DNA of 20,000 nt from an uncultured virus (IMG/VR IMGVR_UViG_3300002071_000003) (Duplodnaviria > Heunggongvirae > Uroviricota > Caudoviricetes). The notes beneath the pieces were generated by a model. That model was not told the origin of the DNA. It ran no database searches and was given only the letters and a program-made list of their open reading frames with translations. Made by a program: the position numbers and the translations under genes. Shown piece by piece: positions 3,501-18,321 of this stretch. The stretch covers positions 55,901 through 75,900 of the IMG/VR virus record IMGVR_UViG_3300002071_000003. The stretch is one strand, 5' to 3'. The first letter of the stretch is position 1; every line of letters begins with the position of its first letter.

Positions 3501-6255
3501 CAGTTTTAATCCAAGCAGTAGATTGGGCATAAGACTGTCTACTAGAAAGGATTATCTGTGATTGTACCTGAGCAAATCCTGTAGAAGTAACCTCAATATC
3601 TGTCTGAGTCTGAGCGTATACTGTATTATTGATAACCTTTATCCAAGAATTACCTTGCGCCCAAACCTGACTTGCTACCTTTACATCGGCTTGTGCATTT
3701 ACACTTGCTGTATAAGTTTGCGTGATATCTGTCTGAGTGTCTGCATATCCTTGGTAGGTCTGCTTTATATCTGTTTGCGCCTGAGCGTAAGCGCGTGAAG
3801 CAGCCTTGATATCCACTTGAGACTGTGCAAATACTTGACTGAACTGCTTTACGTCTACTTGGGCCTGTGCAAAGGAAGGTGTATAGCTCTTAATATCAGC
3901 ACAAGTTTGCCCCAACGTTGAGTAAGTAGCCTTAATCTTTGACTGTGTTTGGCCCCAAACTGTAATACTAGTTACCCTGATCCAAGAATTAGGCTGTGCA
4001 TACCCAGTAGAAGTTTGTTTAATATCAGTTTGTACCTGAGCAGATACCAAGGATACTTGCTTGATATCAGACTGTGCTTGAGCGTATGTAACAGCATACT
4101 GCTTTACATCAGTTTGCGTTTGGACAAACGCTTTCTGTACTGTTTTGATATCAGTCTGTGTCTGAGCTTCTGCTTCAATTAGTGTTATCTTTATCCATGC
4201 ATTAACTTGGGCAAATTGCTGTTTAGTAGATAACGCTGCTACAACCTGTGTCTGTGCCTGAGCATTTGCCCGATAGACTGTCTTAATATCAGTTTGGGCT
4301 TGTCCATAGACCTTAGATATAGCCTTAACATCTACATCTACTTGAGTTTGTGCAAAAGCGCCTTCGCAGTAGTCTGTCTGGAAGGCACCATTTTGGAAGG
4401 CATCACTTTGAAATGCACCAGAAATACAAAGTGGATATGTCTGTTTTATATCTGCCTGAGACTGCCCAAAGGTCTGAATGGATGTTCCTCTAATATTAAC
4501 CATAGACTGCGCATAAAACTGTACAGCAAAGGCATTGATCCTAGTTAATGTCTGTCCATAAGTTGTCTGCCCCGTATCCTTGATCCAAGCATTGGCTTGT
4601 GCAAATACTTGAATGCCCCAATCTTTTATGTCCGCTTGTGTCTGTGCATAAACTGTTTGTCCCCAGTCCTTAATATCTGACTGAGTTTGTCCATAAGTAT
4701 AACGTGTAGTCGCAGTAGCAATGGTAATCTGTGCCTGTACCTGAGCAAATGTTGGACTTTGTATTCCACCTATGGCCCCTGCCGTGTAGTGGGCGGCTAC
4801 TGCGGTCGATGATAGGGCCGTGTCGTAGATCGCAACCTCGTCTACGACCCCGTTCATCGGGTTTGCGCCAGCTACCTGAGCCGCGATTGTGACGGCCGTC
4901 TTGGACGGGAAGGTCCTCGCGACGCTGGTGCTATAGGTGCATTCCGCCCCGTCGAAATACATGTGCCGGGCGGCGCCATTCTTGGTGACAACGATGTGAT
5001 GGAAGAACGTCGTATCCATCCAGAAGCCCGCCACGGTATCGAGGCAGGACCCGGTGTATCCGAGGTCGAACACCAGACTGTTGTTGTACGAATAGATTTG
5101 CGCGCCGTGGTCATAGGACAGATAGACGTGGGTTCCACTGCTCGTGGAGTCACGCTTGACCCACATCTCCAGCGTGAACGTGTCCACGATCGCTGGCAGG
5201 GTCGCGACGGTTGCATACTGGGTTGATGCAGCCGCGAACCGGACCGCCGTATCCGAATCGCCAGTTAGGGCTCCGGCCACTCCGAGGGTCGGTGAGTTGA
5301 CATAGGTTCCGGTGGCCGTGGCGATGGCATCGGCCATGCTGGTCCCCGACAACTCACCTTGGCGCCAGTAGGCGATTGGTGAGTCTGCGAGGACCGTGGC
5401 AGAATAAGACGTACCGCCTCTTGGATATGTTTGTTTTATATCTGCTTGGGATTGGGCATAAGTCGTAATATTCCAATCTTTTATGTCTGATTGTGCTTGT
5501 GCTTCTACTTGTCTAGTAGTGGCCACTGCTACTACCGTTGCTTGTGCTTGTGCCCTTACTTCCATATTTTCTAACAGGGTTATCCAAGCAATAGCCCAGG
5601 TAGCAGATGTTCCTAAGGTAACGTTATAGGTTTGGGCGCCAGGTGCAGTAAGTATTTTTGCTTGTGAAGATATACTTTGCCCCGAGGTTGTTGTTCCATT
5701 TGTAGCAGTTTGTGCTGTAGTCCAAGAGCCGTTTGCAGTATCAGAATCATTAGTAAAGGTTTGAGCAGTGCCATACTGATCACCAACTGCACCAATTACT
5801 ATCTGAGCCTTATCAATAGAACTTGTTGTAATAGTTGGTGCAGTTGAGGAACCTGTTGCTGTAGCCCCTGTTTCATAAGCAACATTATTTCCTGCCGCGC
5901 TATCAACTTCTGTTAAGGCCCAAGCTGTAGACCCGACCGTCTTACCTCCGTAAGCTACAGTAATAGTATTTCCTGTAGTTAATGCCCCAACAGACATATT
6001 GGAAGTGAAAATACGCAGTACATTACCAGCACTAGCAGCACCCGGATCATTTAATGCATTCTGTCTAGGTGTCCAAGTATTACCTACAGAGTCGCTTATT
6101 GCTGAATAGGGATCAGCACCACTCGATCCTGCGTTGTCATAACTAATTTCTAGAACAGCCCATGACCCTGCTGTAAAGTTTGATGCCGGTGTTACAACTG
6201 CGGAAGTACCGCTACCTATCCCACCGCTACCCCTATTCGCTGTTGTTAATGCCAT
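598..6255 (-). CDS. Giant repeat protein (putative tail fibre/virion appendage) with an inserted LamG/concanavalin-A-like domain
   Basis: 1885-aa ORF with a ~230-aa Ser/Thr/Gly/Ala-rich N-terminal domain. A LamG-like segment runs from ADSPIAYWRQGE through FTLEMWVK and FHHIVVT...MYFDG to MNGVVDEVAIYDTALS...VAAHY. The remainder is degenerate 13-15 aa repeats of (Y/F)AQ(A/S/T)Q(A/T)DIK. Confidence 0.8.
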   Translation of the reverse strand: MALTTANRGSGGIGSGTSAVVTPASNFTAGSWAVLEISYDNAGSSGADPYSAISDSVGNTWTPRQNALNDPGAASAGNVLRIFTSNMSVGALTTGNTITVAYGGKTVGSTAWALTEVDSAAGNNVAYETGATATGSSTAPTITTSSIDKAQIVIGAVGDQYGTAQTFTNDSDTANGSWTTAQTATNGTTTSGQSISSQAKILTAPGAQTYNVTLGTSATWAIAWITLLENMEVRAQAQATVVAVATTRQVEAQAQSDIKDWNITTYAQSQADIKQTYPRGGTSYSATVLADSPIAYWRQGELSGTSMADAIATATGTYVNSPTLGVAGALTGDSDTAVRFAAASTQYATVATLPAIVDTFTLEMWVKRDSTSSGTHVYLSYDHGAQIYSYNNSLVFDLGYTGSCLDTVAGFWMDTTFFHHIVVTKNGAARHMYFDGAECTYSTSVARTFPSKTAVTIAAQVAGANPMNGVVDEVAIYDTALSSTAVAAHYTAGAIGGIQSPTFAQVQAQITIATATTRYTYGQTQSDIKDWGQTVYAQTQADIKDWGIQVFAQANAWIKDTGQTTYGQTLTRINAFAVQFYAQSMVNIRGTSIQTFGQSQADIKQTYPLCISGAFQSDAFQNGAFQTDYCEGAFAQTQVDVDVKAISKVYGQAQTDIKTVYRANAQAQTQVVAALSTKQQFAQVNAWIKITLIEAEAQTQTDIKTVQKAFVQTQTDVKQYAVTYAQAQSDIKQVSLVSAQVQTDIKQTSTGYAQPNSWIRVTSITVWGQTQSKIKATYSTLGQTCADIKSYTPSFAQAQVDVKQFSQVFAQSQVDIKAASRAYAQAQTDIKQTYQGYADTQTDITQTYTASVNAQADVKVASQVWAQGNSWIKVINNTVYAQTQTDIEVTSTGFAQVQSQIILSSRQSYAQSTAWIKTVGLVSCAQAQVQIVGAATTTTIYAQSNANILDWGQTTYGQTQADIKQVGIGYGQANAQIILSGRLSYAQVQANIKQFSQGFAQTQTDIKQTSLVSAQTQVNIKATSLGYAQAQVDINAFGVQVYAQAATNIKGTGVGGFAQSQADIKNWGQTVYAQTQVDVKAKSTAFAQGQTDIKAVSFANSQAQAQIILSGRQEYAQPQADIKQIGQGFAIAQTDIKVTEQVFGQALATILQKSRVSANAQTDIKSYYMQSGLSQTDIKVTSRVYAQAATWIKFTNTVALGQAQADVKTTYLVQAQTNSRIVGFNVSQFAQAITNIRFSGTTVSAQAQVKIYAFNYPQWAQAQTDVKRTFQVVAQAQAWVNQKYQTVAQAMADIKKSYYSVSQAQTSIKQSSLVGAQVNAYIQLSGLQVYGQAEADIKVTAAQTGQTTALVVINDIVCSGQAQAAILTQYQSYAQSNADITQTYQAYAQSQTDISQTYYTFAQSMVNVQNSYQSYGQATGYIEVSNIVVSAQTQAYIVSGIKAYAQVQAYIKSIIQHYAQATVWIGGSALGLAQAQARVKTLGITTYAQVQADVKDWGQTTYAQSQAGILDWGKNVSAQARVRVTTTKQVVASIQAKIKGIAVKGYGQSQADIKDWGQTVYAQSQTDIEHTYNVFAQAKVDIETTYTAYAQAQTKIKAISQIFTQSQTDIKAKSLVFTQASAWIGGSSVQPAQVLADIKQSYTVCANARTSIEQNYQASAQAQAQVKTTYKTYSQAIAQIKQISQVYAQVSVHIRSTFPAVAQAQAKIYLVGMGYANSGVAIKQVSSGYAQAQTQILGLYINQTQANAQGLVKTTINIYGQAEASVILSGINQAASTQTLVQTYDWVYGQSAVWVQATYEGYAQAQAVFSKSAGYGQAQVYIIFEYILKTLIISDVALGLVLSDLIVPQERLDDIVIKIVETEPQEIILRLSERTLLLVLSDRDY

Positions 6256-6393: not shown

Positions 6394-6867
6394 CTATCCG
6401 CTTATTCCCATTCTTCCATCAGAGAATAAGGAAATTAGCATTTTTACGTTACGCCCACCATATTCTTCGGGGGTTGTAGTTTGTAGGCCAATAATCTTAG
6501 CTGGAACCCCTGCCGTAACCCTAGTAAACCAAATAGGTCTAAACTGTAAAGGAATAAAAGTATTAACATAATCCCCCTTAGCATCAGCCTCAGAAGGCTC
6601 TATGTTCATTAATTCCCCCACTACGTTTGTTTCCTCGCACAAATAGAGCACCGTTCTTGGGTTCTGTATCTCTACAGTACCGTTCTGAATGTTCCAAGCA
6701 TCATAACCAATAATAACGACACCATTGAGCAAATCAACAGCGACTTTTTGATTAAAGTCCTCCTGAAGTATGAACTTCAGGTTTCCCTCTTCGCCTTGTT
6801 GTACGGGTCTTCCGTCCTGATCCTCGTGGAGTATCTGATCCTGCTTCGTTATCGCTGTCCATCCCAT
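6394..6867 (-). CDS. Hypothetical protein
   Basis: 157-aa ORF with globular-looking composition and GAGGAAAAGG upstream of the ATG. It overlaps the 3' end of the upstream ORF. Confidence 0.75.
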   Translation of the reverse strand: MGWTAITKQDQILHEDQDGRPVQQGEEGNLKFILQEDFNQKVAVDLLNGVVIIGYDAWNIQNGTVEIQNPRTVLYLCEETNVVGELMNIEPSEADAKGDYVNTFIPLQFRPIWFTRVTAGVPAKIIGLQTTTPEEYGGRNVKMLISLFSDGRMGISG

Positions 6868-8311
6868 CTACCTTTTCCTCCGGTTTCTTCTCTTCCCACT
6901 CTTGGGGAATTGGTCCCCATATTCTTTCTTCTGGCTTACCTATGAAGTTAAACTTAGGTGATTCCCTACCAGCGGCCACTAATTGGATATCCTTAACAAC
7001 TTCTTCTTCTGTCATAGGGCGTTCCTTAGGGTCGGGATATATTGCCATTGGCCACCAGTTAGGTGATTGAGGTCCAGATTCCATACCCTCAGGGGTTATG
7101 TTATCTATCTCTGGATGACTTACTTTCTTGGCGCGAAGTTGAATACTCCAAGCATCAGGGCTAGGATTTCCAAATACTTCTGCCCCTTCGCTTACCTCTA
7201 TATCTTCAAAACATCCTAAGCTTTCAACTAGCATTCGAAGAGATTTAGGAGTAAATCCTGCTGCGTGGAAGTTCTTAGCATAATCCTGCTCACCATATAG
7301 CACCCAGTAGTCTGTAGGATACATTTGGTCTATAGCCATCCTATATCCGACATGCCTTAGGTTGGGAACAATTAGTCTTAATTCCCCACCAACTTTTAGG
7401 ATTCTAACCCACTCTTTAAGAACTTTTTGAACGTCATTGAATCCAAAATGTTCAAGTGTGTGAGAACTATATACAATATCAAACGTTTGATTTGGTACTG
7501 GTAGATGACGAACATCGCAAACTACGGTTGGGTTTAATTCCTCTCTAATATCAAATGAAACTACATTTCCCTCATCCCGCATATACGGGGAGACTGGGCC
7601 AGCCCCAATATCAGCAATTAGCTTTTCCCCTGCTGGTAGGATTTCCCATCCAGCATGAGCCTGTGGAGCATTAGCAGGAATTCCAAACATGACCTTCGAA
7701 TTCTTTTCAAAGTGAAATGCCTGGACCGCTGTATCTGCCCAAACCTTATATCCAGCTTTCTTAGCCTTCCAATAAAAGTACAAGTCTTCTGTATTATTAA
7801 CAGGTGTTTCCTTTACCCCCGCAAAAGAAGCGTAGTCTACAGAGTACCAAGGTCCCCCCAGTTCTTTCTGTATCTTTCGATAAACATCTGTCTTGACTAA
7901 AGTTAGCCCACTACCAGCAGCATCTATCTCAATTAAATCCCCTACGTGCCAGTTATAATAAGGGCCATCAAAATGTCCTCTAAAAAGAAGAGGCATTGGA
8001 GGATTAGACTTAGACCAATATACCCCATTTATAATATCCTTGTGCTGATTGAACAGTCTTAAAAACGAATCAGGGGGCGCAATTACATCATCGTCTAACC
8101 AATAAATGTAATTTGCCCCCTGACTTAGTGCAAACTCTACAATCTCGTTTCGTGCATCAGCAATCGGCTTATTCAACACGATCTTATCTATAGCACTTGA
8201 AACAAGTGGAAACTGTTGAGATAATCTACTTTGGAGGAAGTATGTACTTACCATTCCAAAAGACGGAATTCCGACAACTACGTTTAATCCATAGGTGTTA
8301 TTTGCTACCAT
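6752..8311 (-). CDS. Glycosyltransferase (GT-A/GT2-like) fused to a class I SAM-dependent methyltransferase
   Basis: N-half has IADARNEIVEFAL...ANYIYWLDDD (DxD), AAGSGLTLVKTDVY and TEDLYFYWKAKKAGYKVWAD. C-half has IADIGAG (motif I), CDVRHLPVPNQTFDIVYSSHTLEH and VLKEWVRILKVGGELRLIVP. Confidence 0.88.
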   Translation of the reverse strand: MVANNTYGLNVVVGIPSFGMVSTYFLQSRLSQQFPLVSSAIDKIVLNKPIADARNEIVEFALSQGANYIYWLDDDVIAPPDSFLRLFNQHKDIINGVYWSKSNPPMPLLFRGHFDGPYYNWHVGDLIEIDAAGSGLTLVKTDVYRKIQKELGGPWYSVDYASFAGVKETPVNNTEDLYFYWKAKKAGYKVWADTAVQAFHFEKNSKVMFGIPANAPQAHAGWEILPAGEKLIADIGAGPVSPYMRDEGNVVSFDIREELNPTVVCDVRHLPVPNQTFDIVYSSHTLEHFGFNDVQKVLKEWVRILKVGGELRLIVPNLRHVGYRMAIDQMYPTDYWVLYGEQDYAKNFHAAGFTPKSLRMLVESLGCFEDIEVSEGAEVFGNPSPDAWSIQLRAKKVSHPEIDNITPEGMESGPQSPNWWPMAIYPDPKERPMTEEEVVKDIQLVAAGRESPKFNFIGKPEERIWGPIPQEWEEKKPEEKVDGMDSDNEAGSDTPRGSGRKTRTTRRRGKPEVHTSGGL

Positions 8312-9661: not shown

Positions 9662-10027
9662 CTATAGCTTACTTAGTCTTGCGGCTATAATAACATTACT
9701 AGTACTAACAGGTAGCGGGGCACTTGTTCCTGTAATGTTTGAAATAAACTTTCCTGTATCACCCTCTGCGCCCGTAAATAGGGCATCTGGATATTGGGTA
9801 ATCCAACCATCATCAGTTAATAGAACAAGATCATATCTCTTGCCCGGTCTGAATACATAAACTGTTCCAGTCCTTAGCGGAGCAAGCCATTCGCCTAGAT
9901 CAACTAGTGAGTAGGTGATATATGCTCTTGCGCCGGGTCCCGGTATGCCTTCTTTTTCAGGATCAATCGGCTCGGAATCATACCAATAACTCTTTTCCCA
10001 ATCTGGTAGTGTGTTTGGTATCGTCAT
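9662..10027 (-). CDS. Hypothetical protein
   Basis: 121-aa ORF coupled to the thyX stop (ATGA overlap). Its stop codon abuts tRNA-Val. Confidence 0.7.
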   Translation of the reverse strand: MTIPNTLPDWEKSYWYDSEPIDPEKEGIPGPGARAYITYSLVDLGEWLAPLRTGTVYVFRPGKRYDLVLLTDDGWITQYPDALFTGAEGDTGKFISNITGTSAPLPVSTSNVIIAARLSKL

Positions 10028-10710
10028 GGTGCTAAACTCCCGTTCTCAATCCATGCCTTGTATGTCATAGGCATAATGTCTTTGAAGATATCTCTGATTG
10101 CTTCGGCGTACTGCCTGATTTCCCACTGAGCGTCTTCTCCGCAACGAAGGCTTAGAAAATTCATCAGGGATCGTGCATTAACGGTCCAATAATACTCTGT
10201 GTAAGTATTTACCGGAAGAATCATCCTAGCCATTTCTTTTGCTATTCCAAAGGAAATCAGCCTCTTATAGTCCTCGTATGCTTCCATAGAAGAGTTTTCA
10301 ATTGTAATGGCCACCCAAGTATTAGCTGCTTCACTATTGAGCATAATGGACCCTTGCTTATTAGTCTCGGCTGGTCCTCGCGCCACCAGAGGAATATAAA
10401 ACTCTGGTTTAAACTCTGTATATCTACCACTTCTCTCATTATATGAGCCTATACGATGGCGCATCCACTCTCTTGCTACAAATATCGGGGCTTTCACATA
10501 AAAGGTGAACATGTTATGTTCAAAAGGCGTTCCATGCCGGTGTTTCATTAAGTAATTAATTAGCTTCTGGTCCTTCTCTGCACCCTTAGACGTTTCCTCC
10601 GGTCCTAGGCCATTGGAGACTCTTGCAGAAGCAACCACAGATAGATCGCCGCCCGCATAACTCACCAAGCCAACGAAACCCTTGTCCAGAACCTTTGTAT
10701 TTCCTAGCAT
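10024..10710 (-). CDS. thyX: FAD-dependent thymidylate synthase
   Basis: HGTPFEH, PIFVAREWMRHRIGSYNERSGRY (RHRxxSxxxxSxR motif), KEMARMILP, NARSLMNFLSLR, AQWEIR. Confidence 0.97.
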   Translation of the reverse strand: MLGNTKVLDKGFVGLVSYAGGDLSVVASARVSNGLGPEETSKGAEKDQKLINYLMKHRHGTPFEHNMFTFYVKAPIFVAREWMRHRIGSYNERSGRYTEFKPEFYIPLVARGPAETNKQGSIMLNSEAANTWVAITIENSSMEAYEDYKRLISFGIAKEMARMILPVNTYTEYYWTVNARSLMNFLSLRCGEDAQWEIRQYAEAIRDIFKDIMPMTYKAWIENGSLAP

Positions 10711-10940
10711 GGGTGTGAATTATGACTATTACGGGCACGGCTCTCTTTAATATCTTCTAGAAACATATCTACTATCAAACCTAATGCAAAGGTAGCCATA
10801 ATTAGCGCTGCGACAAAGATCACATACCCAAATAGTTCTTTACCCAGTATAAGAATTGCTAACCCCGGAATACCTAGTATAATTGCTACAGGTATAGCGC
10901 CTAAAACAAAGATTCGTAATCCCTTTAATATGCGTCTCAT
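10704..10940 (-). CDS. Small membrane protein (two predicted TM helices)
   Basis: Likely start is ATG 10940 (MRRILKG..., GGAGAG RBS), followed by two hydrophobic stretches. The longer ORF-track version runs through tRNA genes. Confidence 0.7.
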   Translation of the reverse strand: MRRILKGLRIFVLGAIPVAIILGIPGLAILILGKELFGYVIFVAALIMATFALGLIVDMFLEDIKESRARNSHNSHPC

Positions 10941-10960
10941 CTTCTCTCCAAATAAAAAAT

Positions 10961-11035
10961 TGGCGGGGGAGGTAGGATTCGAACCTACACTACGCGGTTC
11001 CAAAGACCGCTGCATTACCATTATGCTACTCCCCT
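10961..11035 (-). tRNA. tRNA-Gln(UUG)
   Basis: Anticodon arm GCGGT-CTTTGGA-ACCGC, D arm GCAT-AATGGTA-ATGC, T arm GTAGG-TTCGAAT-CCTAC, G73 then CCA. The 1:72 pair is mismatched. Confidence 0.9.
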
Positions 11036-11046
11036 GCGAAAAAGTT

Positions 11047-11120
11047 TGGCTGGCACGGGTGGATTTGAACCACCATATCAAGGTTAACAGCCTAGCGTCC
11101 TACCATTGAACGACACGCCA
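11047..11120 (-). tRNA. tRNA-Asn(GUU)
   Basis: Acceptor TGGCGTG/CGTGCCA, anticodon arm CTAGG-CTGTTAA-CCTTG, T arm GGTGG-TTCAAAT-CCACC, G73 then CCA. Confidence 0.92.
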
Positions 11121-11123
11121 ACG

Positions 11124-11270
11124 ATTAGTTATAGAGAGGATTAGATGACTTCGGGATGCGCGTCCCCGCGTGGGTTAGGTTGCCAAGCCTACTTATTAGA
11201 GGCGTACGACATTTTATAATTGGTGTTAATATGTTGAAGTATCCGAAACCGTCACTACCCATAAACTAAT
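11124..11270 (-). ncRNA. Y-like RNA copy 6 (long non-tRNA insert)
   Basis: AUUAGUUUAUGGG-UAGUGAC-GGUUUCGG-AUACUUC-[~80 nt]-CCGAAGUC-AUCUAAUCCU-CUCUAUAACUAAU. Same scaffold as the other five copies. Confidence 0.7.
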
Positions 11271-11381
11271 TATAACTATAAGGGCTTATAAAATGTTACA
11301 GGTTACGTAGTCCTGTTGCCTCGGTAATAATTCATTACCCCTCCGCTCGCAAGCACGTAGGCCGTTACAAAATTAAATTAG

Positions 11382-11503
11382 ATTAGAGAGAATTTGCTGT
11401 GCCAGAAAACACGAGACTTTCATCCCGTTTGCAGGGGGTTGAACCTTGCTGATGTAACCGAAGCTACTGTAACCGAAGTATCTGAACACTTCACTGCTCT
11501 AAT
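11382..11503 (-). ncRNA. Y-like RNA copy 5 (reduced tRNA-like insert)
   Basis: AUUAGAG-CAGUGAA-GUGUUCAG-AUACUUC-[UUCG hairpin, T-arm-like hairpin, 7-bp GAAA hairpin]-CUGGCAC-AGCAAAUUCU-CUCUAAU. Confidence 0.75.
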
Positions 11504-11517
11504 ATAAAACGCAAATT

Positions 11518-11652
11518 AAATAAGGAGAATTAGTCGCTATTGGATATTTAGCGTGTTACCATTACACCCATCCCCCATGACGGAGGATAAGGGATTCGAA
11601 CCCTTTACTCTTCATTAAAAGTGAAGTAACCAACGGCTGCACTACCTTATTT
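11518..11652 (-). ncRNA. Y-like (YrlA-type) RNA copy 4, permuted tRNA-Lys(UUU) mimic
   Basis: AAAUAAGG-UAGUGCA-GCCGUUGG-UUA-[CUUCA-CUUUUAA-UGAAG]-AGUA-[AAGGG-UUCGAAU-CCCUU]-[AUCCUCC-GUCAU-GGGGGAU]-GG-[GUGU-AAUGGUA-ACAC]-...-CCAAUAGC-GACUAAUUCU-CCUUAUUU. Confidence 0.88.
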
Positions 11653-11889
11653 ACTTGTTATTTGGCCTTTAAAGAAGCTACCTACTATACCTAATAGAAG
11701 TGCTATACCTATTCCTTGCGCCCAACTAATAATTGGGAACTGAAATAGTCCTACTAACAGCCAGTTCCATAGCAAGGTTATTACCCCGCCGATCAGTCCT
11801 AAATATAGAACCAAGAACAGAACTACCGCTATCAGCATTGCTAGACAAGCTGTCCCAGTATAATTCTTAGTTTTAAACGTACTCTTCAT
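11647..11889 (-). CDS. Small membrane protein
   Basis: Likely start is ATG 11889 (MKSTFKTKNY..., GAGGT RBS), giving 80 aa, mostly hydrophobic. The longer ORF-track version overlaps tRNA-Glu. Confidence 0.72.
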   Translation of the reverse strand: MKSTFKTKNYTGTACLAMLIAVVLFLVLYLGLIGGVITLLWNWLLVGLFQFPIISWAQGIGIALLLGIVGSFFKGQITSK

Positions 11890-11900
11890 TTGTACCTCTT

Positions 11901-11976
11901 TGGTAGCCCAACAGAGAATCGAACTCTGATCGGCAGAGTGAAAATCTGCAATCCTCAACCGTTAGACGATTGGGCC
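11901..11976 (-). tRNA. tRNA-Glu(UUC)
   Basis: Acceptor GGCCCAA/TTGGGCT, anticodon arm GCAGA-TTTTCAC-TCTGC, T arm CAGAG-TTCGATT-CTCTG, CCA. Confidence 0.92.
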
Positions 11977-11982
11977 AAAATT

Positions 11983-12126
11983 TATTAGGAGAATTTGGTC
12001 GCGTAGGCTTTTTTACTGGCCGCTGCTCTAACACTGAGCTATTCCCCGGCGATTGTTCGGGGAAGAGAGAATTGAACTCCCGACATGCGGCTCCCATGAA
12101 GAAATCCTATGCTTCACTACCTAATA
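11983..12126 (-). ncRNA. Y-like (YrlA-type) RNA copy 3, permuted tRNA-Pro-like mimic
   Basis: UAUUAGG-UAGUGAA-GCAUAGG-AUUUCUUC-AUGGGA-GCCGC-AUGUC-[GGGAG-UUCAAUU-CUCUC]-[UUCCCCG-AACAAUCGC-CGGGGAA]-UA-[GCUC-AGUGUUA-GAGC]-A-GCGGC-...-CCUACGC-GACCAAAUUCU-CCUAAUA. Confidence 0.9.
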
Positions 12127-12139
12127 CTAGGTTCTAAAT

Positions 12140-12227
12140 TTATCTAGGAGGATTTAGTGGCTCTGGCTTTTTACAAAAGACATTTTGAAGTTTTTAGAAG
12201 TATCCAAAACCTTCACTACCTAGATAA
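12140..12227 (-). ncRNA. Y-like RNA copy 2 (minimal)
   Basis: UUAUCUAGG-UAGUGAA-GGUUUUGG-AUACUUC-[30 nt AU-rich]-CCAGAGCC-ACUAAAUCCU-CCUAGAUAA. Confidence 0.8.
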
Positions 12228-12240
12228 TATAATATTCAAT

Positions 12241-12314
12241 TAATCGGAGAATTGGGTCGCTTAGAGTTTGGTTTTCATTTCAAGAGAAGTATCTCTAAAC
12301 TTCACTGCCGATTA
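12241..12314 (-). ncRNA. Y-like RNA copy 1 (minimal)
   Basis: UAAUCGG-CAGUGAA-GUUUAGAG-AUACUUC-[19 nt]-CUCUAAGC-GACCCAAUUCU-CCGAUUA. Confidence 0.8.
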
Positions 12315-12316
12315 TA

Positions 12317-12511
12317 TTATTCTGCTCTATCTACGTAACTTGTGTTGTCCAAGCCACGATGAATATCAGCCACTAATGAATTCGCTAGTGACCAAAGATG
12401 TTTTGCGTTCTCCTGAATGTTATCCTCTTTACGAAGAATCTTAAAGGCTTCTACAACTTCTTTGGCTCTATCGGTTGCTGCCGTTACCGTTTTTGAATCG
12501 GGGGTTTCCAT
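12317..12511 (-). CDS. Hypothetical helical protein
   Basis: 64-aa ORF with AGGAG RBS, located between the Ro60 gene and the ncRNA array. Confidence 0.65.
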   Translation of the reverse strand: METPDSKTVTAATDRAKEVVEAFKILRKEDNIQENAKHLWSLANSLVADIHRGLDNTSYVDRAE

Positions 12512-12714
12512 TTTAATCTCCTATTATATTGCTAGCTTAGTCCGGCTCGTCTAGCTTGATCCTTTAACAGCCCCTTATCGGTGACGACCACGGCGGATCA
12601 ATTGTTTGATATTTTGGGTGGGCTGACTGTTCACCAGCCTGTACCAGCCTGTGAAATCGTACAGGGGATTACTCCAACGTACGACCACGCTCTACAGCGG
12701 TAGCACCCGCGATA

Positions 12715-14298
12715 TTACCACTTATTAATGTGCTGCTCCATAACATTGTTCTCCACAATGTTCATGTAATCGATGATCTTGTCTGACCACCCATTGACCA
12801 AGATAACGTTCTTAGACTTGTTTGGAGTCTGACGTGTTCCATACGAACTAACATCAAGAGAGTATAGATACGCATTTCTATTTACTTGCGCCAAGTAGTT
12901 CTTCCATTCCTCATTCACAAACGAATCTGTGTACCAAGGATAGGTTGTTCCAAAAATTCCGGCCTTGCTCTGACTTTTTTCGGTATTGTAACACTGCATG
13001 TCAGAGACAAGCACGATACGATCTACCTTGATCTTGTTATCAGTCAAAATCTTGAATGCAAGTCCAGCGTTTGTACTGTGACCGACATTTGTATTTACAA
13101 TTTTATCGATGTTGGTGATCATAGTATCGTCAGGATTTACCATGATTCTACGCGCAGTCTGACCGAAGCCGATAACTACAGATTCCTTAGCCTTCTTGGT
13201 AACGATTGCCCCAAGAACGGCCGCAACTTCTGCATTTGTCACCTTAGACTTTTCGGACACTCGCGCTCCTGTCATAGACCCTGAAAGGTCCACAAGAACC
13301 GCTGTACTTCCACCAAGCGTAACATTAGAGATAGACAATTCAAAAGCCTTAGCGATTGCTCGCATAATGCTCTGATTCTCAATTTCCTTATACGCAGAGT
13401 AGAATCTATATGGTAGCTGCTTAGACTTCTTTACAGCGTCCTCATCTGTAATTCGCGCAAGGATAGGATCAAGAGTTACACCCTTTTGGTCAAAGTTACG
13501 CAAGTTACGTAGCAATGCCATATATCCCATCTTAGGAGCGATTAACTCCCAAGTTTCCTTAGACGAACCAAACTTGGAGATGAAAGATTCCCAAGTTACT
13601 GCTCCACCGTTTACAAGGGCCTTTGCCTCAACATCCAGTGTATCCTTTGCAAGCAACTGCTTTAGTGCTGCAATCTTTGGCAATGCTTCTGCGTCAACAA
13701 CATCGTTGACAAGATAGTTTCGCATAGCCTTGGAAACAGGATATCCTTCCTTACGGTAAATAAGATTGAGCACATCACCTAGAGAAACTGCTCCCTTATC
13801 AGAATCATATTTATTCAATTGGTATTCGTCAAATGTAGCGAAGGCTGCTGCCAAACCCTTTTTTAGGGCATTTGGAATAGGCTTTCCATGTGTAGACAAC
13901 TGGTAAGCGATAACACCGCTCAATTCATCTGCACGCTTTACAATCTTAGGAGTATACTCACGAATAAATGGCTTACACTTTTCAATGTTAGCCGCCTCCA
14001 CAAGCAAGACCTGTGGGGTTGTTCGGAGATAAATCTCGTTACGAGCATATGCAGCCAACTGGAGAATAAACTTCGGATTAACTGCTGCTACTTCACGGAT
14101 ATCCTTTACAATCTCTGCGGCAATCTTATCTCCGCTCTTGTAGAAAGTGTCCTCACTCCAAAAGGCTCCAAGAACACGTTCAATTAGGCGATCCTTAGCA
14201 GGAAGCTTCCATGCTACTGCGGCCTCTTCATTAAGAGTCACGTTTTCGGGATCAAGGGACTGTAAGGTTACTGCTGTCTTTGTATTTAACTTAACCAT
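12715..14298 (-). CDS. rsr: Ro60/Rsr-type RNA-binding protein (TROVE domain plus vWA domain)
   Basis: TROVE motifs EDTFY, YARNEIYLRTTP, RADEL, FDEYQLNKY, TWE, MGYMALLRNLRN and SKQLPYRFYSAY. vWA MIDAS motif DLSGSM...STN...SDMQ. 527 aa. Confidence 0.95.
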   Translation of the reverse strand: MVKLNTKTAVTLQSLDPENVTLNEEAAVAWKLPAKDRLIERVLGAFWSEDTFYKSGDKIAAEIVKDIREVAAVNPKFILQLAAYARNEIYLRTTPQVLLVEAANIEKCKPFIREYTPKIVKRADELSGVIAYQLSTHGKPIPNALKKGLAAAFATFDEYQLNKYDSDKGAVSLGDVLNLIYRKEGYPVSKAMRNYLVNDVVDAEALPKIAALKQLLAKDTLDVEAKALVNGGAVTWESFISKFGSSKETWELIAPKMGYMALLRNLRNFDQKGVTLDPILARITDEDAVKKSKQLPYRFYSAYKEIENQSIMRAIAKAFELSISNVTLGGSTAVLVDLSGSMTGARVSEKSKVTNAEVAAVLGAIVTKKAKESVVIGFGQTARRIMVNPDDTMITNIDKIVNTNVGHSTNAGLAFKILTDNKIKVDRIVLVSDMQCYNTEKSQSKAGIFGTTYPWYTDSFVNEEWKNYLAQVNRNAYLYSLDVSSYGTRQTPNKSKNVILVNGWSDKIIDYMNIVENNVMEQHINKW

Positions 14299-14400
14299 TC
14301 TTCCTTACCTCAATTCTGTTGCTATCCAGATAATTATTTGGGGCGGTCTGCCCGGTTGCAGAACTGTTTGCGCATTTCCTAGGAAGCCAAAGCGCCCCAA

Positions 14401-14541
14401 TTATTCAGTTTTCTCTTTCGGAGAGAAACGGCCTTTTTTCTTTGTCGAAATGGGCTTTGGAACAGCCCTTGGTGGACTTAGCGGTTTTTCCCAAGGCTGT
14501 AATTCCCTTTGTTTGAAGGCCGTGCCCTTCACTTCTTGCAT
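14401..14541 (-). CDS. Small basic Pro/Lys-rich protein (46 aa)
   Basis: Below the track cutoff. MQEVKGTAFKQRELQPWEKPLSPPRAVPKPISTKKKGRFSPKEKTE with RBS AGGAAAGGTG. Confidence 0.55.
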   Translation of the reverse strand: MQEVKGTAFKQRELQPWEKPLSPPRAVPKPISTKKKGRFSPKEKTE

Positions 14542-14583
14542 AGTACACCTTTCCTACGGCGAGGTTCAACTTTTTGATTATTT

Positions 14584-14657
14584 TGGTGGACCCACAGAGA
14601 ATCGAACTCTGATTTTATCGGTGCAAACGATATGTTCTCCCATTAAACTATAGGCCC
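14584..14657 (-). tRNA. tRNA-Ala(UGC)
   Basis: Acceptor GGGCCTA/TGGGTCC with the G3-U70 identity pair, anticodon arm TATCG-TTTGCAC-CGATA, A73 then CCA. Confidence 0.93.
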
Positions 14658-14659
14658 AT

Positions 14660-14736
14660 TGGAGGCATCGGTGGGATTCGGACCCACGTAATCCGGTTTT
14701 GCAGACCAGCCCTTTAAGCCGCTCAGGCACGACGCC
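14660..14736 (-). tRNA. tRNA-Cys(GCA)
   Basis: Acceptor GGCGTCG/CGATGCC, anticodon arm CTGGT-CTGCAAA-ACCGG, U73 then CCA. T loop is TCCGAAT. Confidence 0.92.
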
Positions 14737-14966
14737 TAGTAGTGTGAATTTGGATTTGGATACATTGGTACAGCATATGTTTGATCAGGCTTATTTAAAT
14801 CCTTAAAAGGATAGGTTAGTCCCTCCCTTAAACACTCTTCTACAACTTGATTAGCGTAGAATTCTGCTTCTTCCATGTACCAAATATACTCTCTATCTTT
14901 TATATGCTCTTTAAGAGCACCTACTAATATGTTTTTAGCAGATTTATAAATTGTATAGGTATCCAT
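14736..14966 (-). CDS. Hypothetical protein
   Basis: 76-aa ORF directly abutting the upstream ORF stop. Confidence 0.6.
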   Translation of the reverse strand: MDTYTIYKSAKNILVGALKEHIKDREYIWYMEEAEFYANQVVEECLREGLTYPFKDLNKPDQTYAVPMYPNPNSHY

Positions 14967-16554: not shown

Positions 16555-18321
16555 CTAGTCCTTTTTCCAGATATCTGAAACTACTGCGTCTGCCTTGATA
16601 GGCACGGATTTTAGCAGGGTCTTCGCTGCATTAATCATCGAAGCCTCTACTACTTCCTTAACAGTCTCGGCAGATCGCTCGTGGGCTAGGACAACGATTT
16701 CGTCATGGACCTGTAGAATTATAGTAGCACGTAGGTCGTAAAGGTTCAACTCATTGTAAATATCGAGTAATGCCAGTTTGGTGATATCAGCGTTTGTGCC
16801 CTGAATTACCGCATTAGCCGCTTGGCGCTTAATGGATGCTACCTTATTATCGTAATCCATGCCCTGACTGGGCTTTACGAACCATCTTCTGCGCCCTAGC
16901 ATAGTTTCGGAGTAATCACGAGCAAATCCTGCATTTCCTGCATATGTAAGCCATTCGATAGCTTTTTTATAGGTTTTCTTGTATCGGAACAGCAAACTCT
17001 TCGTATCCTCGACGGAAATCCACTCTTTTCGGTTCTTTCCATTGTTCAGCATATCTCTCAACTTCATATAACCCATTCCGTAGGCTAATCCAAAGTTGAT
17101 AGTCTTAGCGATGAAGCGCTGCTCTTTATCAATGCTATCAATGGGAAGATTAAACATCTGCGCTGCTGTCGCCTTGTGTGGATCGCCGCCCATTTCAAAG
17201 GCATTTGTCAATCCGGGGTCTTGACTTAGCTCTGCTAAAATTCTCAACTCAATCTGAGAGTAGTCAGCGACAACAATCTTGTAGCCCGGTAGACTTACGC
17301 AGTAACGAAACTCTACAGGCATCTGCTGTAGATTTGGATTTCTACACGCAAATCTTCCGGTTTGTGTGCCTATTTGTTGCCAATCTGGATGAATTCTGCC
17401 CGTAAATGGGTGAATTGCACCAAGAAACGTTTCCCCGTAAGACGACTGGATTTTCTGTAGTTTTCGGTAATTTAGCAGTTCTACGGCAGCGGGATGCTCA
17501 ATAAGAGACAGTTCTCGCACATTTGTAGCATTAATATTGATTCCGAGCTTCTTAAAACTCTCCAAAATCTGTTTGGGACTGTTTAGATTGATAGCATCGC
17601 GCTCGAACATTCCTGTCTGCTCATCAAGCAGCCCGCCGTCGAATAGCAATTCATGCATCTTTAGGCGGGAATCTTCGTGCTCCTTCTCATAGTCTTTGAG
17701 TCTAGACTTCCATCTATCAGTATTGATAGGTACACCCTCCAACTCCATAGCCGCCAGAACGCGCACCAACTCAAATTCCAGATCAGCAACGCGCTCTAAT
17801 CCGAAGTCTTTAAGCAGTTTCTTCTGTGCTTCCCAAATCGGGAATAGAATCTCCGCGTCTTTGGCCGCATACGTAATCTGCTCATCAGAAAAGGAACTAT
17901 TTGTTGAATCAAAGAATGTGGTTCTAACACTCTTGTCTAGAACTTCGCCAGTATACTTTAAGGCCACCATCGCCAAAGATGGAAACGGAACATCAGTAAT
18001 TAGCTGTTCTGCCAAGAAAGTGTCAAAAATACCCTTTAGTTCAGCTTGTAGGAAGTAGTTTAGAAATTTAGCCTCAAATTTAGCATTATGGGCTAATTTA
18101 AGCCATTTTCGATCTTCAAAGTATGGTTTGAGAAATTTGAGGTCGCTTTTAACCCCATTAAGCACAAAAACAGACTTATCGGGGAAACCAATCTGTGCCA
18201 GAAGGATTCTAGAGTCTAACGGGCTTAAACCGCTGGTTTCCAAGTCGATTGAAAATGTGTCATACTCGTTAAATTTGGAAAGAAGGTTTGGATTGTTCGA
18301 TTCGACAAGGCTCCAAGCCAC
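16555..18321 (-). CDS. polA: DNA polymerase family A (3'-5' exonuclease plus polymerase, no 5'-3' exonuclease)
   Basis: Exonuclease motifs DLETSGL, HNAKFE and YAAKDAE. Polymerase motifs TQTGRF...PNLQQ, DYSQIELR, RFIAKTINFGLAYG (Phe at the E. coli 762-equivalent site) and QVHDEIV. Confidence 0.97.
   Translation of the reverse strand: MAWSLVESNNPNLLSKFNEYDTFSIDLETSGLSPLDSRILLAQIGFPDKSVFVLNGVKSDLKFLKPYFEDRKWLKLAHNAKFEAKFLNYFLQAELKGIFDTFLAEQLITDVPFPSLAMVALKYTGEVLDKSVRTTFFDSTNSSFSDEQITYAAKDAEILFPIWEAQKKLLKDFGLERVADLEFELVRVLAAMELEGVPINTDRWKSRLKDYEKEHEDSRLKMHELLFDGGLLDEQTGMFERDAINLNSPKQILESFKKLGININATNVRELSLIEHPAAVELLNYRKLQKIQSSYGETFLGAIHPFTGRIHPDWQQIGTQTGRFACRNPNLQQMPVEFRYCVSLPGYKIVVADYSQIELRILAELSQDPGLTNAFEMGGDPHKATAAQMFNLPIDSIDKEQRFIAKTINFGLAYGMGYMKLRDMLNNGKNRKEWISVEDTKSLLFRYKKTYKKAIEWLTYAGNAGFARDYSETMLGRRRWFVKPSQGMDYDNKVASIKRQAANAVIQGTNADITKLALLDIYNELNLYDLRATIILQVHDEIVVLAHERSAETVKEVVEASMINAAKTLLKSVPIKADAVVSDIWKKD

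Follow-up and report, generated by a model that had tools for sequence, protein, structure and literature searches.

The window analysed here, a stretch of 20,000 nucleotides (nt) from an uncultured virus (Caudoviricetes; IMG/VR record IMGVR_UViG_3300002071_000003, positions 55,901 to 75,900), encodes an orthologue of Ro60/Rsr (the rsr gene) and, downstream of it, six tandem RNAs built on a common handle (of which copy 6 shows the 5' motif only). The third of these RNAs (copy 3) is a 144-nt RNA located 589 nt downstream of rsr on the same strand, in which a terminal stem encloses a circularly permuted cloverleaf, and it is very probably a YrlA-type Y RNA gene of the phage. All genes near copy 3 are on the minus strand, and the array is interleaved with tRNA-Glu, a small open reading frame (ORF) and tRNA-Asn, within the phage tRNA cluster. 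The phage carries 28 tRNA genes, all of which encode CCA and which include its own tRNA-Pro(UGG) and tRNA-Lys(UUU). The main features of the locus, with scores for R1, a covariance model described below, are the following.

12715..14298, minus strand: rsr, Ro60/Rsr orthologue, 527 amino acids (aa); Pfam TROVE, E 2.8e-34, and vWA_Ro60, E 1.2e-7
12241..12314, minus strand: Y RNA copy 1, YrlB-like, handle and short module without a tRNA-like domain; terminal stem partner; R1 48.3 bits
12142..12225, minus strand: Y RNA copy 2, handle and short hairpin module; R1 43.2 bits; fold z -2.33
11983..12126, minus strand: Y RNA copy 3, YrlA-type, with permuted tRNA-like domain; Rfam YrlA 30.9 bits; R1 94 bits
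11901..11976, minus strand: tRNA-Glu(UUC), beginning 6 nt past the end of copy 3; ARAGORN; Rfam tRNA 55.6 bits
11519..11651, minus strand: Y RNA copy 4, tRNA-like, with a complete anticodon-type hairpin; R1 113.6 bits; fold
11382..11503, minus strand: Y RNA copy 5, handle and a different, branched module; R1 29.5 bits, E 0.001; fold
11127..11266, minus strand: probable Y RNA copy 6, 5' handle motif alone, ending just before tRNA-Asn, boundaries uncertain

The cloverleaf of copy 3 reads, in order, UGGGA, a 5-base-pair (bp) anticodon-type stem, variable loop, T arm, 7-bp acceptor-type stem-loop and D arm, whereas the handle consists of two helices, P1 and P2, with a conserved asymmetric loop in which UAGUGAAG faces GACCAAAUUCU. 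The individual parts are as follows.

12126-12120 with 11989-11983, minus strand: P1, 7 bp
12098..12126, minus strand: 5' half of the handle, with the P1 strand (12126-12120), the conserved UAGUGAAG loop (12119-12112), the P2 strand (12112-12106) and AUUUCUUC (12105-12098)
12096-12092, minus strand: UGGGA, anticodon-loop remnant (positions 34-38), from sequence, directly 5' of GCCGC
12091-12087, minus strand: GCCGC, 3' strand of the anticodon-type stem, fully complementary to GCGGC at 12023-12019
12086-12082, minus strand: variable loop AUGUC
12065..12081, minus strand: T arm GGGAG / UUCAAUU / CUCUC (helix 3), from fold and covariation, 98.9% of cells paired
12064-12058 and 12048-12042, minus strand: acceptor-type stem UUCCCCG + CGGGGAA (helix 4), 7 bp, C1-G72, from fold and covariation
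12057-12049, minus strand: acceptor-type loop AACAAUCGC, 9 nt, A73 + ACA + AUCGC
12041-12040, minus strand: U8-A9
12039-12025, minus strand: D arm GCUC / AGUGUUA / GAGC, from fold and covariation
12023-12019, minus strand: GCGGC, 5' strand of the anticodon-type stem, preceded by A26, one base past the D arm
11983..12018, minus strand: 3' half of the handle, with linker CAGUAAAAAAG, P2 strand CCUACGC, loop GACCAAAUUCU and P1 strand CCUAAUA

A single-sequence minimum free energy (MFE) fold of copy 3 yields exactly these helices (-41.8 kcal/mol). When copy 3 is re-joined in silico and given a CCA tail, ARAGORN reports a perfect cloverleaf, tRNA-Pro(tgg), with the anticodon loop CAUGGGA; in the genomic form, neither ARAGORN nor the Rfam tRNA model makes a call at 11983-12126. 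Of the bases for tertiary contacts, as read off the sequence, U8, A14, G15 with C48 and the T loop UUCAAUU are present, but the D loop has GU in place of GG. An earlier sequence-only reading of this DNA, made with no database searches, had described the stretch as a permuted tRNA mimic on a handle common to other copies, with UGG-GA directly preceding GCCGC, GCCGC pairing with GCGGC past the D arm, and the acceptor strands CGGGGAA/UUCCCCG followed by A-ACA inside a 9-nt closing loop. All these elements are present, the MFE fold contains the same pairings, and the handle is indeed shared.

The permissive scan with the Rfam YrlA model (RF02553) aligns copy 3 at 11998-12112 (minus strand) with model positions 1-114, that is, with the full model, at 30.9 bits (E 2.1e-4 for the 1.3 kb searched and 2.9e-6 for this genome). 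According to Chen et al. 2014 (PMC4201824), YrlA RNAs, reported there in 254 bacteria and 22 phages, are encoded no more than 4 kb away from Ro60, on the strand of that gene, and comprise a 5' motif thought to contact Rsr, a conserved YUAY, and T, acceptor-like AS, D and optional V stem-loops. Copy 3 is encoded within this distance on the rsr strand and shows the same arm order, i.e., T arm, closed acceptor-like stem-loop and D arm, all enclosed by the pairing of the 5' and 3' ends. Because this architecture matches that of the published YrlA RNAs encoded beside rsr, the sequence-only reading had in effect rediscovered the YrlA design without naming it; the role of the handle as the Ro60/Rsr-docking stem was missed.

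The phage Rsr is the presumed protein partner of the Y RNAs. The solved structures nearest to it are those of the Ro60 protein of Thermus phage phiLo (9L5Y/9KOP, E 4.2e-27), followed by Deinococcus radiodurans Rsr (2NVO, E 1.9e-7). Matches to Rsr are found in 115 cultured-phage records, all less than 60% identical, and a megablast search of 50,697 phage records with 11100-14300 gives no match. The window belongs to a virus record of 75.9 kb; the same phage is also present as a 117-kb record rated 98% complete, which was used for whole-phage family searches.

For the comparative analysis, 1350 Rsr homologues with E <= 0.001 were collected among 7998 scored candidates; a single-Rsr query for related loci returned only the same phage, so that an alignment of 33 homologues was used instead. 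The best 80 of 307 confirmed viral Rsr loci and the best 80 of 575 confirmed bacterial and archaeal ones were analysed. The covariance model R1 was built on 17 aligned tRNA-like Y RNAs of full length, taken from the window and from 11 different viral loci. RNAalifold run on these 17 relatives recovers P1, P2, the T arm, the acceptor-type stem and the D arm, altogether 29 pairs, with compensatory changes in 27 of them, and in the 5' half of the handle A9, G10, G12, U24 and C26-C29 are invariant. Among 125 distinct model-aligned viral sequences, 95.8% of the cells pair, compared to 57.2% in column shuffles and 39-48% in slid controls, in an alignment that is fitted to R1 itself, which favours pairing; changes on both sides occur in 28 of the 29 pairs, and in all seven pairs of the acceptor-type stem. 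Thus, the structure of copy 3 is beyond chance, as shown by the cloverleaf on re-joining, the full-length alignment to the Rfam YrlA model and the helix covariation in relatives.

The model R1 finds 170 matches at E <= 0.001 in the window and 79 viral loci; the best 150 of these are spread over 63 of the 80 sources, where one locus may hold as many as six of them and 23 of the 63 sources hold three or more. Of the 80 bacterial loci, 71 contain matches (122 in total), which always lie on the strand of rsr and in most cases immediately upstream of the gene. Within the window itself, R1 detects copies 4, 3, 1, 2 and 5 but not copy 6. Four of the viral loci contain orthologues of copy 3, namely L003 and L009, where the RNA occupies the same slot before tRNA-Glu, and L007 and L008; the respective Rsr proteins are 54-78% identical to that of the window.

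The comparison of the handles connects the phage and bacterial families. In bacterial and actinobacterial loci, the handle reads GGUGCG(A/C)AG, P2, GG(U/A)UACUUC, and in phages G(U/C)AGUGNNG, P2, (U/A)UACUUC. Judging by these sequence patterns, the phage handle is homologous to the bacterial YrlA handle, i.e., the predicted Ro60-docking stem. The YUAY element of Chen et al. would correspond to UAC within (U/A)UACUUC; at this site, copy 3 has UUUC, and the other five copies of the window and most relatives have UUAC or AUAC.

Several observations weigh against the assignment of copy 3 to the YrlA-type Y RNAs. The YrlA score of 30.9 bits does not reach half of the Rfam gathering score (69). Copy 3, which has UAGUGAAG, contains no literal match to the published 5' motif GNCGAAN0-1G; the pattern of the phage family is G(U/C)AGUGNNG, which we read as a putative diverged form of that motif. 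The folding energy of copy 3 is near that of shuffled sequences (z -1.66, with 16 of 200 shuffles folding equally well). The D loop, AGUGUUA, shows GU where tRNAs and most YrlA RNAs have G18-G19, and because of this replacement the elbow contact of copy 3 may be weaker. A scan of 10900-14800 for promoters and terminators gave 4 and 3 sites, respectively, against shuffle means of 7.0 and 3.4. Finally, contigs from RNA libraries (two runs of one study), which are 90-93% similar to 11123-11467 and 11123-11382 and thereby cover copy 6, a spacer element and part of copy 5, reach copy 3 with just a 35-nt piece.

RNAs of this kind were known before: YrlA RNAs of phages date from a 2014 report, and a phage Ro60 with Y RNA-like partners from one of 2025. 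What is new is an uncultured phage lineage whose tRNA cluster includes six Y RNAs, together with a diverged docking motif below the Rfam threshold; the comparative reading of the anticodon and CCA relics given below may be new as well.

The closest described counterpart is the YrlA RNA of Salmonella Typhimurium (RF02553), which likewise is encoded beside rsr on the same strand, has pairing 5' and 3' ends, and combines an anticodon-type stem of distant strands with the variable loop, T arm, closed acceptor-type stem-loop and D arm. As described in the preprint of Wang et al. 2018 (10.1101/312249), the Salmonella RNA lacks an anticodon loop, and its tRNA-like domain has been solved (PDB 6CU1). 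In contrast, copy 3 contains an extra outer handle helix, has G(U/C)AGUGNNG for GNCGAAN0-1G, scores 30.9 of 69 bits, has an acceptor-type stem of 7 rather than 6 bp, keeps the UGGGA remnant, and is phage-borne as one of six. With the YrlA RNAs of Mycobacterium smegmatis and other actinobacteria, the phage family shares the conserved (U/A)UACUUC after P2; the actinobacterial RNAs in the loci retrieved here mostly possess a UUCGN hairpin with a 7-nt anticodon-like loop, whereas copy 3 has lost this hairpin and pairs behind the D arm. In the case of phage phiLo, whose Ro60 is the nearest solved relative, Y RNA-like partners (Yrl1 and Yrl2) also adjoin a phage Ro60 gene, but these are two upstream RNAs with a CGAA motif, as opposed to six downstream RNAs in the window, two of them tRNA-like and none with CGAA; the term tRNA-like does not occur in the available portion of the phiLo report (PMC12135203). 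Permuted tRNA genes of red algae and an archaeon, as covered in 10.1101/312249, resemble copy 3 in that the 3' half comes first, the acceptor loop is short and the transcript ends pair. Those genes are described there as matured by a splicing endonuclease and a ligase, of which there is no sign in copy 3, whose handle also carries modules that are not tRNA-like.

Two short segments of copy 3 appear to be relics of a tRNA. At the UGGGA site, the four orthologues (L003, L007, L008 and L009) have CUUGGGA (two of them), CUUUGGGA and CUUUGGGC; given that all four keep the motif at the same place, it is conserved in the copy 3 lineage. The remaining features of the orthologues vary: L007 and L008 are without the trans anticodon stem, and the first acceptor-type pair is C1-G72 in the window and L009, U1-A72 in L007 and L008, with a shorter stem in L003. 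In many other family members, the site just 5' of the T arm (V in the literature) is occupied by a hairpin with a 5-bp stem set on the handle UUCGN and a 7-nt loop. These loops mostly follow the rule for anticodon loops: among the 53 bacterial hairpins (loci L084-L163), Y32 is present in 50, U33 in 48, R37 in 51 and A38 in 49, and among the 32 viral ones (loci L003-L081) the counts are 23, 27, 31 and 28, respectively. The triplets in these loops vary widely, the commonest being GUU (11 bacterial and 6 viral hairpins); copy 4 has such a hairpin. The V hairpin of YrlA-type RNAs looks like a maintained mimic of the anticodon arm. Copy 3, in turn, looks opened in the anticodon loop because the hairpin is absent and its 3' strand pairs behind the D arm, as in Salmonella YrlA. 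The sequence-only reading likened the RNA to a tRNA nicked in this loop, which fairly describes this subtype (open between positions 33 and 34) as well as YrlA RNAs generally.

The second segment is the loop of the acceptor-type stem, where A-ACA had been noted to resemble A-CCA. This likeness is borne out by the relatives: of the 94 distinct viral members with a tRNA-like domain, 13, distributed over 12 loci, have N73-CCA at the start of the loop (e.g., L008:7210-7348, L019:4429-4563 and L079:4378-4519), and CCA is the commonest triplet at that offset, being found 13 times at this position against 3 and 1 times one base to either side. Among bacterial members, N73-CCA at the loop start occurs in 6 of 119. 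The orthologue in L008 has A-CCA-AAUCGA where the window has A-ACA-AUCGC. In view of the offset-specific CCA and of the A-CCA in L008, A-ACA is best read as a putative decayed encoded CCA followed by a former spacer. Both relics would fit an origin of YrlA from tandem or dimeric tRNA genes as proposed by Sim and Wolin 2018, quoted in the preprint of Wang et al. (10.1101/312249). The refinement suggested by the present comparison would be that the closed stem represents true acceptor strands, not spacer, and that the loop consists of the discriminator, CCA and the intergenic spacer.

The more specific claim that the tRNA-like payload derives from a tRNA-Pro(UGG) is not supported. Scoring of the re-linearised RNA against isotypes, the refuting test set beforehand, was performed with improvised ARAGORN-based profiles, and Pro is not the best isotype, ranking 7th of 17 with the anticodon loop masked and 4th of 17 with the whole arm masked. 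The reference, also improvised, was built from ARAGORN tRNAs of all loci and the genome: 459 calls yielded 433 distinct ones with a consistent anticodon, from which 21 were removed by a crude flag for Y RNA-derived calls (a few true tRNAs among them), along with ambiguous calls, selenocysteine (SeC), Leu, Ser and Tyr tRNAs and those with lengths outside 68-80, leaving 325 class-I tRNAs of 17 isotypes. In a 5-fold test, the profiles assign the right isotype to 198 of the 325 tRNAs (Pro, 13 of 18) with the loop masked and to 194 of the 325 (Pro, 11 of 18) with the arm masked. For copy 3, the loop-masked scores are Lys 32.3, Ala 32.2, Val 31.3, Thr 29.5, Met 27.0, Trp 25.5 and Pro 24.1 bits, and the arm-masked ones Val 27.5, Lys 26.7, Ala 25.8 and Pro 22.2 bits; for the four orthologues, Pro ranks 4th, 5th, 14th and 7th. 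A nearest-neighbour comparison places Pro first by a slight margin (0.754 versus 0.744 for Ser) and was judged uninformative. Among the tRNAs of the phage itself, the one most similar to copy 3 is Gln(UUG), at 71%, and tRNA-Pro is outside the top ten.

The main determinants of prolyl-tRNA synthetase (ProRS) are A73, G72, G35 and G36, and G36-G37 is the context for m1G37; copy 3 keeps these. The combination of C1-G72 and A73, which copy 3 also has, is found in 14 of 18 Pro tRNAs and in 19 of 380 non-Pro tRNAs of the reference. The same signature is present in three non-Pro tRNAs of the phage, namely Glu(CUC), Asp and Val, and is absent from three of the four orthologues of copy 3. The re-joined anticodon loop, CAUGGGA, has A33 rather than U33, and copy 3 itself has an open loop with UGGGA alone. 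Across viral Y RNAs, a Pro-like loop remnant coincides with C1-G72/A73 in 6 of 17 cases versus 4 of 77 when the motif is defined broadly (p 0.002, uncorrected for kinship) and in 2 of 7 versus 8 of 87 with strict UGGGN (p 0.16); the corresponding values for bacterial members are p 0.62 and 0.47. This co-occurrence, weak in the viral members and lacking in the bacterial ones, does not suffice to support the claim. Only UGG-G-A, C1-G72 and A73 point to Pro, and the parent isotype cannot be recovered. An alternative parent, tRNA-Gln(UUG), was considered, as the closest tRNA of the phage and in view of the body of the L008 orthologue, which scores as Gln with 41.8 bits, the next isotype reaching 26.7. 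It was rejected as unprovable, Gln ranking 15th of 17 (8.5 bits) for copy 3 itself. A BLAST search of five bacterial genomes with the 80-nt tRNA-like core was also tried as an isotype test and dropped, since its hits were all short and weak (best E 0.002 over 29 nt). A putative independent capture of different tRNAs into one handle, which had been suggested from the difference between copies 3 and 4, is compatible with the diversity of the modules. In copy 4, four arms are present, i.e., a 5-bp hairpin on the handle CUUCA, the T arm, a 7-bp acceptor-type stem closed by GUCAU and the D arm; its hairpin loop, CUUUUAA, contains a Lys-like UUU, whereas the body, with the arm masked, scores best as Gln (28.0), not Lys. 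The match of copy 4 to the Rfam tRNA model is partial (model positions 8-63, 24.8 bits).

By analogy with the studied systems, a working scheme for copy 3 can be outlined. The rsr gene, the Y RNAs and the neighbouring tRNAs would be made as one precursor, from which the 3' end of copy 3 would be released by the RNase P cut at the 5' end of tRNA-Glu, 6 nt downstream; the same tRNA-Glu neighbour follows the orthologues in L003 and L009. Contacts of Rsr with the handle would involve P2 and the UAGUG/UUCU loop. The L-shaped tRNA mimic could then be presented to a partner that recognises tRNA or degrades RNA (polynucleotide phosphorylase, PNPase, in the studied systems), which would thereby be tethered to Rsr, with the Rsr cavity gated. 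Y RNAs are described as docking on Ro60/Rsr via the stem formed by their ends, tethering a partner such as PNPase and gating the cavity (PMC4201824, 10.1101/312249), and Ro60 of Thermus phage phiLo is reported to bind two phage Y RNA-like RNAs and to assemble with host PNPase (PMC12135203). In M. smegmatis YrlA, RNase P is reported to cut the 7-bp acceptor-type stem, with subsequent CCA addition (PMC4201824, 10.1101/312249). Given the full 7-bp acceptor-type stem, as in the M. smegmatis RNA, copy 3 likely is an RNase P substrate as well, and the cut would fall in the acceptor-type loop. No match to the RtcB and PolyA_pol (CCA-adding type) families was detected in the 117-kb record of the phage.

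These elements can be combined into a joint reading under which RNase P would open the acceptor-type stem of copy 3 and CCA would be rebuilt, producing a two-piece, Rsr-held look-alike of tRNA-Pro with which the phage could bait or sense host factors that inspect anticodon loops or attack them; taken together, the six modules would form a panel of baits guarding the 28 tRNAs, with the V hairpin as a maintained anticodon-arm mimic. As a whole, this scenario appears unlikely. The probability of the less elaborate version is low too: here, the tRNA-like module would mimic a nicked or targeted tRNA and, presented on Rsr, would distract or sense anticodon-loop nucleases, enzymes of tRNA repair or tRNA-specific enzymes, or stand in for their substrate, and so protect the large tRNA set of the phage. 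In its favour, the design equals a tRNA that is open after position 33 and kept together by the handle, copy 3 resides among 28 phage tRNA genes, and the Salmonella rsr-yrlBA-rtcBA operon is linked to nicked tRNAs in a study in which a permuted tRNA served as a nicked-tRNA mimic (PMC10159003). However, no defence or nuclease gene is linked to copy 3 here, the phage shows no RtcB match, and the loop triplets differ even in close orthologues (AUAGGGA in L013 and AUCCAGA in L017) and therefore argue against a fixed target. The anticodon-loop rule seen in the 53 bacterial and 32 viral hairpins is compatible with mimicry but could equally reflect inheritance from tRNA, kept for folding.

It is very improbable that copy 3 is a genuine circularly permuted tRNA-Pro(UGG) gene whose transcript, by opening of the acceptor loop, addition of CCA and joining of the anticodon loop, matures into a working tRNA. 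The perfect cloverleaf obtained on re-joining, with its ARAGORN assignment to Pro, the Pro-enriched C1-G72/A73 signature and the 7-bp acceptor-type stem are all as expected of such a gene, and the preprint of Wang et al. (10.1101/312249) considers that YrlA RNAs might be processed in this way. Nevertheless, A33 replaces U, the D loop lacks GG, copy 3 has ACA where all 28 tRNA genes of the phage encode CCA, and the phage already owns a tRNA-Pro(UGG). Furthermore, the RtcB ligase was not found in the 98%-complete record (the bulge-helix-bulge motif was not searched for), the same handle flanks five RNAs, four of which have no tRNA-like domain, the orthologues in L007 and L008 have no trans anticodon stem, and the loop-masked body ranks Pro only 7th. 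There is equally little to recommend the notion that copy 3 is a pseudogene without function, left over from a tRNA that was rearranged when the phage tRNA cluster recombined. The location, the decayed features (ACA for CCA, A33, and GU for GG) and the near-shuffle folding energy could be explained in this way, but not the orthologues that precede tRNA-Glu in L003 and L009, in phages with Rsr of 54-78% identity, the compensatory changes that keep every helix, or the occurrence of family members next to rsr in 63 or more of the 80 viral sources and in 71 of the 80 bacterial loci. Coding of the stretch for a protein can practically be dismissed: two mechanically called ORFs, 11970-12137 (plus strand, 55 aa) and 11873-12097 (minus strand, 74 aa), overlap copy 3, but neither has a Pfam match at E <= 0.1, the latter runs through tRNA-Glu, and the substitutions among relatives are of the paired, compensatory RNA type.

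The identification of copy 3 as a phage YrlA-type Y RNA accounts, together with the other copies, for six unannotated small-RNA genes beside a phage Ro60 gene. The phage-derived model R1 recognises Y RNAs that are under the Rfam threshold, in viral as well as bacterial rsr loci. The anticodon remnants, N73-CCA and true-looking acceptor strands found along the way bear on the origin of Y RNAs and on the purpose of their tRNA-like domains, and a phage with 28 tRNA genes, Ro60 and a panel of tRNA mimics is a natural system in which to ask about Ro60 particles in tRNA conflicts.

Several additional observations were made on the relatives. The 7.8-kb contig L084, from a Flavobacteriaceae metagenome-assembled genome, encodes an Rsr that is 62% identical to that of the window and has three R1 matches on the rsr strand; it probably belongs to a related phage and was grouped with a bacterial genome in binning, which makes it a weak host hint at most. 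In L006 (7432-7564), and in a related RNA in L008, the handle is followed by UACUUCG and then by an insert in normal order (D arm, CUU anticodon arm, T arm), which ARAGORN calls tRNA-Lys(ctt), a third way of mounting tRNA parts on the handle. In bacterial loci such as L098, L115, L134, L142 and L162, ARAGORN miscalls the 5' two-thirds of actinobacterial YrlA as tRNA-Pro (agg, ggg, cgg) or tRNA-Arg, and such miscalls are a possible source of false tRNA annotations beside rsr.

Within the array, copy 6 gives no R1 match at E <= 0.001, and its fold is no better than that of shuffles (z -0.22). The 120 nt between copies 5 and 6 (11265-11385, minus strand), which contain neither a handle nor an ORF, are covered by the RNA-library contigs and may represent another structured RNA, although carry-over of DNA in the libraries is also possible. 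Two small ORFs of the array, 12317-12511 (minus strand, 64 aa), directly after rsr, and 11650-11889 (minus strand, about 79 aa), between tRNA-Glu and copy 4, match no Pfam family at thresholds, the sole hit being to DUF697, far under its cut-off; the product of the latter ORF is hydrophobic by eye. Elsewhere in the window, also on the minus strand, are genes for a 1885-aa protein with a Laminin_G_3 domain (598-6255), a fused glycosyltransferase-like/methyltransferase protein (6752-8311), ThyX (10024-10710) and a family A DNA polymerase with a 3'-5' exonuclease domain (16555-18321).

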